Positions 9,219 to 15,865 of a stretch of 16,195 nucleotides of DNA are shown in pieces. This stretch comes from a virus (lineage: Duplodnaviria; Heunggongvirae; Uroviricota; Caudoviricetes): the IMG/VR virus record IMGVR_UViG_2537561991_000020; one strand, 5' to 3'. How positions within the stretch are numbered: position 1 is the first letter of the stretch; every line of letters begins with the position of its first letter. The notes under the pieces were generated by a model. It searched no databases. It was not told where the DNA came from and worked only from the letters and a program-made list of their open reading frames with translations. Both the position numbers and the translations under genes were made by a program.

Positions 9219-9264
9219 AATTGTCACAGGTAATGAAATTAAAGAGTATTGGTTCGGATATGAA

Positions 9265-9294
9265 TTGACATTTTCGCGGCACAGAGCTAAAAAT
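9265..9294 (+). promoter_or_regulatory. Candidate sigma70 promoter in the AT-rich leader upstream of the SIR2-like gene
   Basis: TTGACA at 9265-9270, 17-nt spacer, taaaaat at 9288-9294. It would give a roughly 290-nt leader to the ATG at 9587. Confidence 0.3.
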
Positions 9295-9586
9295 AGCCTA
9301 CTTGTTGGTTTTGTGTGAAAAGCAGACATTTTGAGGCTCAGGATTTGTTATCAAATAAGACCAATACTTATCTATATTAATACACATTAAATACTGTGCA
9401 ATACATTATTGCATTTTATTAGATAAGCGATATTTAGGGAAAAGAAAAGTCATAGAAAACAGGCCGCTATTTGTTGTTGGATTTTATAGGCTATATCTAG
9501 ATTATCTTGCCACTGCGGTCTCTGTTTACCTAACAGCTTGGGCTTCTTTGCATGCAAGTTTGTAATAACAAGAGTAATCAAACGGA

Positions 9587-10618
9587 ATGTCTATTAATCC
9601 TAAACTTAAGCGTATCGCGCGACGCTATCCAGCGTTATTCCAATATGAGTCCCCCTATATGGCAAGAAAATTAATAATATTCGGCAACGGTCTCGGTATG
9701 GCTTTAGATCCTGCTCACTTCTCCTTAGACAGAGCGTTGGAAGAAATTTGGCATCGCCCCAATTTTTTAAAAGATATCCACAAGCAACTTATCGAGCGTT
9801 GTCTTCAGCGGCAAGGTCCACCAGAAGGAGAACATGAGTTGGATACCCTTCACCAGGCTGTCACATATTGTAAAGCTCTTGCTCAAATTGGAGAGGGGAA
9901 CGTGCATTGGCTTACTGAAGATGGACTAAACTTCCCCAAAATTACCGCCACTTATATTCACAAAGTTGCAACCAGGTTGCATAATTACGATAAAGGTTTG
10001 CCACAAAGATTCGAAAATGCGCTTGTGGAGTTTGTAAAGAACACACACTCACATATCGCGACATTAAACTATGACAAATTATTATACAATTCATTCATAG
10101 ATAATGATATATTCAACGGGTATGATGGGGTTTTAGTTGATGGGATGCTAAGCCACGGATTTTCCTCTGCAGCGCTCGAACGGAAATACAATCGTAGGTT
10201 TGGTTATTATTTGCACTTGCATGGTTCACCACTATTTATTAATCAGCATGAAAATGTTTTAAAACTTTCACGCTCACAACTTACTCTTGACATAGATGAA
10301 CCTAGTGAGCATATAGTGTTAACTCATATAAAAAGAAAACCGTCAGTTATAGCAGCATCTAATGTTCTTTCTACGTACTGGGATTATTTGCAGTTTGCAT
10401 TATTTGAATCAGAAGAAATAATATTGTTTGGTTACTCTGGTCTCGATATTCACCTTAACCTGCTTATTCGACCTTACCTAACCTCTAAGCCTTTAAGAGT
10501 AATTGAGTGGAGCGGTGCTGGTGAACAAAACGCTCGTGAGATATATTGGAAAAACCAGTTGAGACGGGAAGTTACTGTAATTAGGTTGGATAACATCACT
10601 GATTTTATTGATTGGTAG
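9587..10618 (+). CDS. Standalone SIR2-like (SIR2_2-type) putative NAD+-hydrolase; candidate anti-phage defence cargo gene
   Basis: 343-aa ORF in a visibly AT-rich block. Four ordered motifs parallel Thoeris ThsA-type SIR2 domains: IIFGNGLGMALD (Gly-rich loop), TLNYDKLL (conserved Asn), YYLHLHGSP (catalytic His), IILFGYSGLD. Start codon is uncertain because the ribosome-binding site at 9587 is weak. Confidence 0.6.
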   Translation: MSINPKLKRIARRYPALFQYESPYMARKLIIFGNGLGMALDPAHFSLDRALEEIWHRPNFLKDIHKQLIERCLQRQGPPEGEHELDTLHQAVTYCKALAQIGEGNVHWLTEDGLNFPKITATYIHKVATRLHNYDKGLPQRFENALVEFVKNTHSHIATLNYDKLLYNSFIDNDIFNGYDGVLVDGMLSHGFSSAALERKYNRRFGYYLHLHGSPLFINQHENVLKLSRSQLTLDIDEPSEHIVLTHIKRKPSVIAASNVLSTYWDYLQFALFESEEIILFGYSGLDIHLNLLIRPYLTSKPLRVIEWSGAGEQNAREIYWKNQLRREVTVIRLDNITDFIDW

Positions 10619-10688
10619 CGCAATGCGAAGTTAAAGAGGCAGCCTCATATTTATCAGAGCTGGTGTACGTCCAATACAGGAGGTTATC

Positions 10689-10778
10689 GTGCTGGTTCTC
10701 AAATGCGCGCTGGCTATTGCGGCTGTAGTGGCAATTTATTGTCTTGCTATTGTTCTTATGGATCGCCTTTCTGATTGA
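10689..10778 (+). CDS. Putative 29-aa hydrophobic membrane peptide
   Basis: GTG at 10689 preceded by a consensus AGGAGG (10678-10683) with 5-nt spacing. Product VLVLKCALAIAAVVAIYCLAIVLMDRLSD is one predicted transmembrane helix; stop TGA at 10776-10778. Not in the ORF track because it is under 60 aa. Confidence 0.35.
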   Translation: MLVLKCALAIAAVVAIYCLAIVLMDRLSD

Positions 10779-10989
10779 TTTTATATTGGCGAGGTGACGG
10801 GAGTTAAGTAGAATTGCTGCGGGTGCTTGAGGCTGTCTGCCTCGGGCATGCCACCGTAAGGCAGACAGAGAAAAGCCCCAGTTAACATTACGCGTCCTGC
10901 AAGACGCTTAACATTAATCTGAGGCCCAATCTATGCTTCACAAACGTAGGTTAGCCTCTTACGCGCCGAAAGGCAAGGAGAAGCAGGCT

Positions 10990-11145
10990 ATGAAGCAGCA
11001 AAAGGCGATGTTAATCGCCCTGATCGTCATCTGTTTAACCGTCATAGTGACGGCACTGGTAACGAGGAAAGACCTCTGCGAGGTACGAATCCGAACCGGC
11101 CAGACGGAGGTCGCTGTCTTCACAGCTTACGAACCTGAGGAGTAA
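10990..11145 (+). CDS. hokD: Hok-family type I toxin HokD/RelF (51 aa)
   Basis: MKQQKAMLIALIVICLTVIVTALVTRKDLCEVRIRTGQTEVAVFTAYEPEE matches K-12 HokD as I recall it. Internal ATG at 10990; stem-loops typical of hok mRNA leaders lie upstream (10833-10868, 10882-10916). Confidence 0.85.
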   Translation: MKQQKAMLIALIVICLTVIVTALVTRKDLCEVRIRTGQTEVAVFTAYEPEE

Positions 11146-11213
11146 GAGACCAGGCGGGGGAGAAATCCCTCGCCACCGCTGATGTGTCAGGCATCCTCAA
11201 CGCACCCGCACTT

Positions 11214-11245
11214 AACCCGCTTCGGCGGGTTTTTGTTTTTATTTT
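11214..11245 (+). terminator. Rho-independent terminator after hokD
   Basis: Stem cccgc (11216-11220), loop ttcg, stem gcggg (11225-11229), followed by tttttgtttttatttt. Confidence 0.6.
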
Positions 11246-15615: not shown

Positions 15616-15691
15616 GGCCCTTTAGCTCAGTGGTGAGAGCGAGCGACTCATAATCGCCAGGTCGCTGGTTCAAATCCAGCAAGGGCCACCA
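15616..15691 (+). tRNA. tRNA with CAU anticodon (tRNA-Ile2, ileZ-like, or tRNA-Met)
   Basis: Cloverleaf folded by hand: acceptor ggccctt/aagggcc, anticodon loop ctCATaa, T-loop ggttcaaatcc, discriminator A and encoded CCA. Confidence 0.85.
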
Positions 15692-15698
15692 TCACATA

Positions 15699-15775
15699 CC
15701 GCTATTAGCTCATCAGGAAAGAGCGCCAGCCTTCGAAGCTGGCTGCGCGGGGTTCAAGTCCCCGATGGCGGTCCA
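15699..15775 (+). tRNA. tRNA-Arg (anticodon UCG), argN-like
   Basis: Acceptor ccgctat/atggcgg (one G-U pair), anticodon stem ccagc/gctgg with loop cTTCGaa (U33, anticodon UCG), T-arm cgggg-ttcaagt-ccccg, encoded CCA. Confidence 0.75.
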
Positions 15776-15788
15776 TTATCTGCATCAT

Positions 15789-15865
15789 GCGTTGTTAGCT
15801 CAGCCGGACAGAGCAATTGCCTTCTAAGCAATCGGTCACTGGTTCGAATCCAGTACAACGCGCCA
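15789..15865 (+). tRNA. tRNA-Arg (anticodon UCU), argO-like
   Basis: Acceptor gcgttgt/acaacgc, anticodon loop cTTCTaa (anticodon UCU), T-loop ggttcgaatcc, encoded CCA. Confidence 0.85.

Follow-up and report, generated by a model that had tools for sequence, protein, structure and literature searches.

A conserved 29-codon reading frame beside hokD in lambdoid prophages of Escherichia and Shigella probably encodes an independently maintained single-helix membrane peptide

Searches for small open reading frames (ORFs) in Escherichia coli have yielded small inner-membrane proteins that include YohP, AcrZ, and MgtS, and the morons of prophages include HK97 gp15. In the hok/sok locus of plasmid R1, pairing between the tac and fbi elements defines the ends of the hok mRNAs. 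Here we report on a 29-codon ORF that lies between a SIR2-like gene and hokD in a 16,195-nucleotide stretch of Caudoviricetes DNA (IMG/VR record IMGVR_UViG_2537561991_000020), the whole of which is referred to below as the window. Comparison of this ORF with its counterparts elsewhere indicates that positions 10689-10778 are probably a genuine, independently maintained small gene for a 29-residue, one-helix membrane peptide, MLVLKCALAIAAVVAIYCLAIVLMDRLSD. Lambdoid prophages of the Qin/mEp460-like type carry the gene in their early-right (replication-to-nin/Q) region, in both Escherichia and Shigella. Specifically, the gene is located between the replication genes and the nin-like genes, 5' of rem, ydfU, rusA, and a DUF1133 gene, which we take to encode the Q-like antiterminator.

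With the small single-pass inner-membrane proteins of E. coli, the predicted product shares a length of less than 50 residues, one hydrophobic helix, a strong Shine-Dalgarno (SD) sequence, a history of being missed by annotation, and a restriction to close relatives. It differs from the named proteins in that it bears no sequence relationship to them and has no match in NCBIfam, Pfam, or PHROGs. The ORF resembles morons in its variable presence and in that a promoter of its own is predicted for it within a prophage operon, and differs from them in that no terminator lies 3' of it. A further likeness is to the type I toxins Hok/Gef, TisB, ZorO, Ibs, Ldr, ShoB, and DinQ: the peptide is short and hydrophobic with a polar end, and its gene is beside a bona fide hok/sok locus. 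However, no antisense RNA gene, long structured leader, or homology to Hok was found. Compared with the hok/mok/sok loci of R1 (hok/sok) and phage 933W (hokW), the ORF is contiguous with a complete hok locus, comprising promoter, tac and fbi elements, mok, hok, and terminator, but lies outside the hok transcript and is absent from the other hok loci. Finally, the defence hot spots of P2 and P4 prophages have conserved flanks (PMC9122126). The present locus is similar in that a conserved block borders a slot of diverse, often defence-related cargo (PD-T7-1, PDC-S39, ThsA-like SIR2), and different in that it occurs in the lambdoid group and its flank is a peptide-coding gene, apparently under selection, and not merely a core structural or replication gene.

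The features of the ORF that an earlier note had read from the window were re-evaluated using the sequence and the ORF list. Both bear out the AGGAGG, the 5-nt spacer, the GTG start at 10689, and the length of 29 codons, and the coordinates place the ORF where the note had put it, 3' of the SIR2-like gene and 5' of the hokD leader: gaps of 70 and 42 nt separate it from the SIR2-like ORF (9587-10618) and the hok mRNA leader, respectively. The single transmembrane helix that had been predicted was likewise recovered. Thus, the grand average of hydropathy (GRAVY) of MLVLKCALAIAAVVAIYCLAIVLMDRLSD is 1.90 and its top 19-residue Kyte-Doolittle window, residues 6-24, scores 2.84, values that fit one transmembrane helix; a short acidic tail stands behind the hydrophobic helix at the C-terminus. 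The motif AGGAGG-N4-8-(A/G/T)TG occurs twice in the window, as compared with 1.25 occurrences expected from shuffled sequences, and the other occurrence precedes the DUF977 gene. As the combination of SD and start motif alone is therefore within chance, the meaning of the ORF was decided by sequence comparison.

Two samples were drawn from IMG/VR, one using a pattern inside the ORF, which fixed 21 ORF positions and is biased, and the other using a pattern in the hok promoter, outside the ORF, which leaves the sampling of the ORF unbiased. Because of the bias in the ORF-internal sample, the statistics were recomputed on the hok-promoter-anchored sample. The latter contained the full ORF in 88 of 130 loci, and all 88 copies were intact and free of indels. 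The ORF was truncated in the other 42 loci, in 39 to its last 6 codons and in 3 near ORF nt 47, and it is absent in 933W-type phages; this variable presence is as in morons. Among copies located by BLAST, 144 of 146 were intact at 29 codons, without indels, and represented 38 nucleotide and 26 peptide alleles. One of the two non-intact copies has no stop codon and extends by 2 residues; the other is probably a locus-edge artefact.

The substitutions among these copies are distributed as in a coding sequence. Based on a neighbour-joining tree, the numbers of parsimony steps at codon positions 1, 2, and 3 were 15, 11, and 34, respectively (chi-square p = 5e-4). The synonymous (dS) and non-synonymous (dN) divergence and their ratio (omega) were evaluated for pairs of deep alleles using the NG86 method. 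The allele of pINV-type plasmids and the L195-type allele differ by 13 synonymous and 7 non-synonymous changes (dS 1.19, dN 0.12, omega 0.10, binomial p = 2.8e-4). The corresponding values were 9 and 4 for the consensus versus L195 (dS 0.57, dN 0.07, omega 0.12, p = 1.7e-3) and 9 and 7 for the consensus versus pINV (dS 0.62, dN 0.12, omega 0.20, p = 8e-3). In the two other frames, the identical allele pairs gave omega values of about 1-6. The amino-acid replacements are conservative (A/T/V, I/V, D/E/N, R/H, M/T), and the helix stays hydrophobic throughout.

The translation signals are conserved together with the frame. The SD has 0.33 parsimony steps per site, as compared with 2.0-2.2 in the adjacent 5' untranslated region (5'UTR) and spacer. 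The start and stop codons have 0 steps each, and the stretches between the signals 1.8-2.2 per site. Every copy carries a purine-rich SD (AGGAGG, AGGAGA, GGGAGG, or GGGGGT), and the sole indel near the ORF falls between the SD and the start codon. Neither strand gave an RNA folding signal (z = -0.12 and -0.24), and the alignment contained essentially no covariation (term -0.17), which leaves no RNA-structure signal to account for the conservation instead. We conclude that the peptide sequence itself appears to be under purifying selection, in what is a shallow family. The earlier note had looked to conservation of the peptide across homologous loci and to a synonymous pattern; both are present, and together with the conserved translation signals they lend support to its core idea of a real, translated small membrane peptide.

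A putative promoter of the ORF was evident from the same comparison. CATATT stands at -43 (+/-2) nt from the start codon in 45 of 46 unique upstream sequences, and TTGA(A/G/T)N stands exactly 17 nt 5' of it in 38 of 45, while the 17-nt spacer varies freely. This conservation of TTGAnn-17-CATATT is the pattern expected of a sigma-70 promoter and suggests promoter activity; transcription is predicted to start near 10658, giving a 5'UTR of approximately 31 nt. Most loci would accordingly combine their own TTGAAT-17-CATATT promoter, a short 5'UTR of this length, a strong SD, and a GTG start. In such a moron-like arrangement, the weak promoter and the weak GTG may provide low-level constitutive expression in the lysogen. 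In the window, the insertion of SIR2 appears to have replaced the -35 element: ATGCGA (10623-10628), from the tail of the SIR2 cargo, occupies the position of the usual TTGAAT. With the -35 element so replaced, the peptide would probably be produced here by read-through from SIR2 and/or from a weakened promoter. The terminator scan of the window detected no terminator-like site between the SIR2 gene and the small ORF, which makes co-transcription and read-through expression likely at this locus. The peptide itself may insert as a single-pass inner-membrane helix, with the N-terminus in and the C-terminus out according to the positive-inside rule, and might act as a membrane-acting modulator or exclusion-type accessory factor, not as a hok regulator.

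Several observations weigh against a selected and autonomously expressed gene. When variable sites were pooled, 17 synonymous and 20 non-synonymous changes were counted, without stops; as about 11 of the 37 would be expected to be synonymous, the excess is modest. Closely related alleles gave omega values near 0.5-1.8. Diversity is shallow, the carriers being Escherichia and Shigella only, with about 5 deep alleles, and the dN/dS estimates therefore rest on 13-20 substitutions per pair; moreover, the parsimony counts are inflated by recombination. The ORF is dispensable, cargo having taken its place in about a third of hok-linked loci. Searches for transcription start site, Ribo-seq, and proteomic data for the ORF found none. 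The predicted promoter agrees with the consensus at 8 of 12 positions, below the scan threshold, and in BL21 Star(DE3) (L012 1204-1563) a deletion removes the ORF's own promoter. Finally, the scan of the window revealed no terminator between the ORF stop and the hok terminator at 11214-11231, and the moron architecture is thus incomplete.

Table 1. Coordinates of the small ORF, its signals, and the adjoining features in the window.
Feature	Position	Strand	Remarks
SIR2-family cargo gene	9587..10618	+	'SIR2 family protein' in the Prokaryotic Genome Annotation Pipeline (PGAP); directly 5' of the small ORF
Cargo junction	10623..10636	+	Homology to other loci from ~10636, between the two hexamers
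Putative -10 element CATATT of the ORF's sigma-70-type promoter	10646..10651	+	0 parsimony steps in 66 unique sequences; flanks ~1.8 per site
Shine-Dalgarno sequence AGGAGG	10678..10683	+	Spacer TTATC, 5 nt, then GTG at 10689
29-codon small gene (probable)	10689..10778	+	GTG start; TGA stop at 10776-10778; product MLVLKCALAIAAVVAIYCLAIVLMDRLSD
hok promoter TTGGCG-17-TAGAAT	10786..10814	+	Begins 8 nt past the ORF stop; agrees with the mRNA 5' end at 10821
hok mRNA leader (tac element, Sok target, mok start)	10821..10995	+	Rfam 'sok' RF01794, 116.2 bits, E = 3.7e-27, full model
mok reading frame, 70 aa	10933..11145	+	Overlaps hokD; MokW in homologous records
hokD toxin gene, 51 aa	10981..11136	+	PGAP: type I toxin-antitoxin system toxin HokD
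Intrinsic terminator of the hok transcript	11214..11231	+	First terminator 3' of the small ORF

Among the possible roles, a membrane-acting accessory function of the moron type ranks first and is the most likely. A toxin-like role is possible and ranks second, without showing the hallmarks that could be tested here. In this reading, the peptide would be a membrane-damaging toxin, either a new type I toxin with an unrecognised antitoxin RNA or a stand-alone depolarising effector acting during infection or induction; we consider it unlikely, with some chance of being correct. Its 29 residues, single hydrophobic helix, and polar, charged tail resemble TisB, ZorO, Ibs, and DinQ-type toxins, and the ORF borders a defence hot spot and has another type I toxin locus as its neighbour. 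Retention of the weak GTG start in 144 of 146 copies would be in keeping with a requirement for low expression, and in the consensus fold the SD and the start codon lie inside a 5-bp stem formed by the predicted mRNA 5' end (AUCAG) and codons 2-3 (CUGGU). That stem is invariant, however, and there was neither significant RNA structure on either strand nor covariation. Similarly, no conserved antisense promoter was found: the sole minus-strand site, TTAACT-18-TAAAAT (10807-10778), reads TGAAAT in the consensus of the other loci. The predicted 5'UTR of approximately 31 nt contrasts with the long processed leaders of type I toxin mRNAs, the peptide has no Hok similarity and matched no PADLOC, Pfam, or NCBIfam model, and many small hydrophobic bacterial proteins are non-toxic. 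More doubtful is the proposal that the frame is non-functional and lies open within a conserved non-coding block, be it a mosaic-boundary 'linker' for homologous cargo exchange or upstream sequence that the hok promoter requires, simply because the copies are young. Divergence is indeed low, with most copies 90-96% identical, and the block flanks a recombination hot spot with 49 upstream contexts and has cargo junctions inside or beside it, at 10636 in the window and at ORF nt 47 and nt 67 elsewhere. The modest synonymous excess at pooled sites (17 versus ~11 expected of 37) and the fact that PGAP never calls the ORF also fit this proposal. It is at odds with the omega of 0.10-0.20 between deep alleles, which is frame-specific with p values to 2.8e-4 at a dS of 0.5-1.2, comparable to the divergence of the flanks. 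It is further at odds with an SD, start, and stop that are invariant while the nucleotides between them vary, and with indels that occur just 5' of the ORF and never inside it. As the intact ORF is kept where hok is gone, it is not a hok promoter element.

Two of the roles that the earlier note had proposed, those of hokD leader peptide and SIR2 partner, rank third and are contradicted by the comparison of loci. A leader or upstream ORF controlling hokD/mok on read-through transcripts is suggested by the common strand and by the distance of 42 nt to the hok leader; since there is no terminator between the ORF and hok, transcripts from the ORF promoter or from SIR2 would run into hok. Nevertheless, this role is very improbable: the ORF precedes the hok promoter and is not part of the hok mRNA; the 5' end of this mRNA, at 10821, has to base-pair with the fbi element at its 3' end (11195-11207). 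In addition, the ORF and hok are each found without the other, homology to the 933W hokW locus extends from 10801 onward and the ORF is absent there, and the hokD locus of K-12 and the hok locus of plasmid R1 presumably have no such small ORF either. Still less credible is a membrane partner or effector of the adjacent SIR2-like defence protein. The shared strand, the 70-nt gap, and the lack of a terminator in the window would be consistent with such a pair. Yet the SIR2 type of the window precedes the ORF in only 4 of 128 loci; elsewhere its place is taken by unrelated genes, in some cases on the opposite strand, and the homology block of the ORF begins at 10636, past the SIR2 stop. The holin-like role ranks last. 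Holin genes accompany the endolysin and spanin genes in a lysis cassette located downstream of Q, and holins are typically at least 60 residues in length. As the peptide is a 29-residue single helix and its gene is far from the lysis cassette, neither size nor genomic position fits, and the role is unlikely.

Three other ideas were tried and set aside. Origin of the ORF by duplication of hok found no support in BLASTP against the adjacent HokD, which gave no alignment at E <= 100, or in Pfam, where Hok/Gef (PF01848) was not matched. An antisense RNA was judged unlikely on the grounds that the single minus-strand promoter-like site is specific to the window. An anti-SD pairing of ACAGCCTC with GAGGTTGT, which the common allele shows, does not hold in the HannyBb, BL21, and H2 alleles. 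In the Rfam scan, no match overlapped the ORF, and the only clear one was the hok leader; the Rfam family, although named 'sok', models and matches the sense-strand hok leader.

The preferred interpretation, of a small gene maintained in its own right, is consistent with the relationship between the ORF and hok. In the sequence of the window, the fbi element, CCTCAACGCACCC at 11195-11207, has its complement in GGGTGCTTGAGG at the 5' end of the hok mRNA (10821). With its stop 8 nt 5' of the hok -35 element and 42 nt 5' of the hok mRNA, the ORF is outside the hok leader. Indeed, the ORF and hok are independent modules. The ORF occurs without hok in L008 and L194-197, in which it is followed instead by a convergent DUF1971 gene and a terminator, and on pINV, where hok has decayed to a remnant and the ORF is intact (135 plasmids). 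The reverse, hok without the full ORF, is seen in the truncated loci. In 39 of the 130, queH cargo deletes most of the ORF and the queH stop codon abuts 'TTTTATGGATCAC...'. This junction is exemplified by L139 (8911-9622) and 38 similar IMG/VR loci: the stop of queH (epoxyqueuosine reductase, DUF208) is 4 nt before the ATG of ORF codon 24, and the 6-codon remnant MDHLSD stands directly behind AAGGAG. At another queH junction (L010, HannyBb), the whole ORF is intact. In many porcine enterotoxigenic E. coli (ETEC) and O139/O141 strains, the locus comprising SIR2, small ORF, and hok is interrupted by an IS481-family transposase near the start of hokD; as the match to the pig ETEC ends at window position 10981, the hok toxin gene is disrupted and the small ORF kept.

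The 165-bp block at 10636-10800 was found in 2,510 of 5,426 complete E. coli genomes, with a match to at least 80% of the query in 1,847. PGAP never annotates the ORF in the complete E. coli genomes that carry the block. The block is also present in phages Tritos, Evi, mEp460, and HannyBb, without plus-strand annotation there. The description of the ORF as unannotated in the earlier note thus applies to RefSeq/PGAP and phage records. It does not apply to some GenBank records, in which the exact peptide or near alleles are deposited as 'hypothetical protein' or 'membrane protein'; examples are REL606 ACT39199.1, BL21(DE3) ACT43394.1, E. albertii, and Shigella. In E. coli B, a shortened DUF977 gene has become joined, through a deletion, to sequence just 5' of the ORF SD, and the annotated DUF977 coding sequence overlaps the first ~40 nt of the small ORF in a different frame. 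The record of phage HannyBb (L001 2454-2743) contains two minus-strand 'hypothetical proteins' over the hok leader and the small ORF. They are probably mis-calls, as the window does not keep these frames open: the corresponding minus-strand ORFs there are 23 and 35 aa long.

In a scan of species-representative genomes, the ORF was confined to Escherichia and Shigella, besides a few contigs of metagenome-assembled genomes. These contigs carry other genus names and are presumed to be mis-binned. An ATG-initiated allele, MLVLKGTLAIAAVMTIYCLIVVLMERFSD, was detected using tblastn on 135 pINV-type plasmids of S. flexneri, S. sonnei, S. boydii, S. dysenteriae, and enteroinvasive E. coli (EIEC). On pINV, an intact copy of the ORF is located in the ospZ-icsP intergenic region (L011 1380-1960, EIEC), approximately 280 nt 5' of icsP; 3' of it stand what is left of the hok promoter (TTGGCG...TAGAAT) and ~60 nt of the hok leader. 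This segment looks like a fossil of a lambdoid prophage inside a well-studied region regulated by VirB and H-NS. To reach beyond the common alleles, a degenerate protein-level pattern was built that leaves them out, and was run on IMG/VR and metagenomes. It yielded one more divergent allele in IMG/VR; in the metagenomes, it found no distant homologues, the matches being the same divergent allele again and 84 chance matches. Searches of PHROGs, NCBIfam, Pfam, and PADLOC with the peptide gave no meaningful match, only sub-threshold compositional ones to ATP synthase subunit c and CoxIIa. Exact-peptide and topic searches of the literature did not find the ORF described. The peptide family thus appears to be undescribed in the searchable literature and absent from curated family libraries, while an overlooked small hydrophobic prophage protein is a well-known kind of object.

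The 1.3 kb upstream of the conserved block fell into 49 unrelated clusters among 128 loci. Thus, the region is a cargo hot spot rich in defence genes, of which SIR2 is one interchangeable cargo. As the homology block starts at 10636, past the SIR2 stop codon, SIR2 is inserted cargo. Genes found upstream at other loci encode a major facilitator superfamily transporter (on the opposite strand), a restriction endonuclease, QueH, a methyltransferase, ThsA-like SIR2, PD-T7-1, and PDC-S39. The slot between the DUF977 gene and the small ORF (window ~9220-10636; L001-L012 and IMG/VR equivalents) is hyper-variable and contains many unannotated cargo proteins. It is a candidate defence hot spot of lambdoid prophages, and, across the loci compared, the small ORF is its constant right-hand flank. 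With respect to the SIR2 gene of the window, PGAP calls a coding sequence of 960 nt, starting 72 nt later than the longest ORF. The protein gave weak PADLOC matches to Aga_SIR2 and PDC-S21 (E ~1e-5 to 1e-6), and the gene appears to be carried alone as cargo, no partner being obvious. In the common locus type (L002 2351-2375; L004-L009), an inverted repeat, GTCCGCT-N10-AGCGGAC, occurs ~200 nt 5' of the ORF with no T-run after it; the homology has its left edge at this repeat, which the window lacks.

If expressed, the peptide would add a widespread small membrane protein to the Escherichia/Shigella pangenome, one that is without RefSeq annotation or a Pfam, NCBIfam, or PHROGs model. There is a slim chance that it is an unrecognised membrane-active effector, either a new small toxin of enterobacteria or a peptide acting in superinfection exclusion or abortive infection. 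As such, it may be a constant component beside a swappable defence slot, and one that each Shigella lineage has kept independently on its virulence plasmid. An unannotated functional membrane peptide would then be present in about a third of E. coli genomes and on every pINV plasmid. The ORF and hok together are usable as a right-hand anchor for mining the diverse anti-phage cargo of the slot. For the window itself, a tempting reading is removed, leaving the SIR2 gene without a membrane partner and hokD without a leader peptide.

Two minor features of the window were also noted. An Rfam match to isrK at 11154-11235 (24.9 bits versus a gathering threshold of 50, E = 0.011) covers the 3' end of the hok mRNA and its terminator and probably reflects terminator similarity only. 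Three tRNA genes, with anticodon CAT, Arg-TCG, and Arg-TCT, are located at 15616-15865, 3' of a DNA methyltransferase gene; the tRNA with the CAT anticodon is assigned as Met by ARAGORN and as tRNA-Ile in RefSeq.

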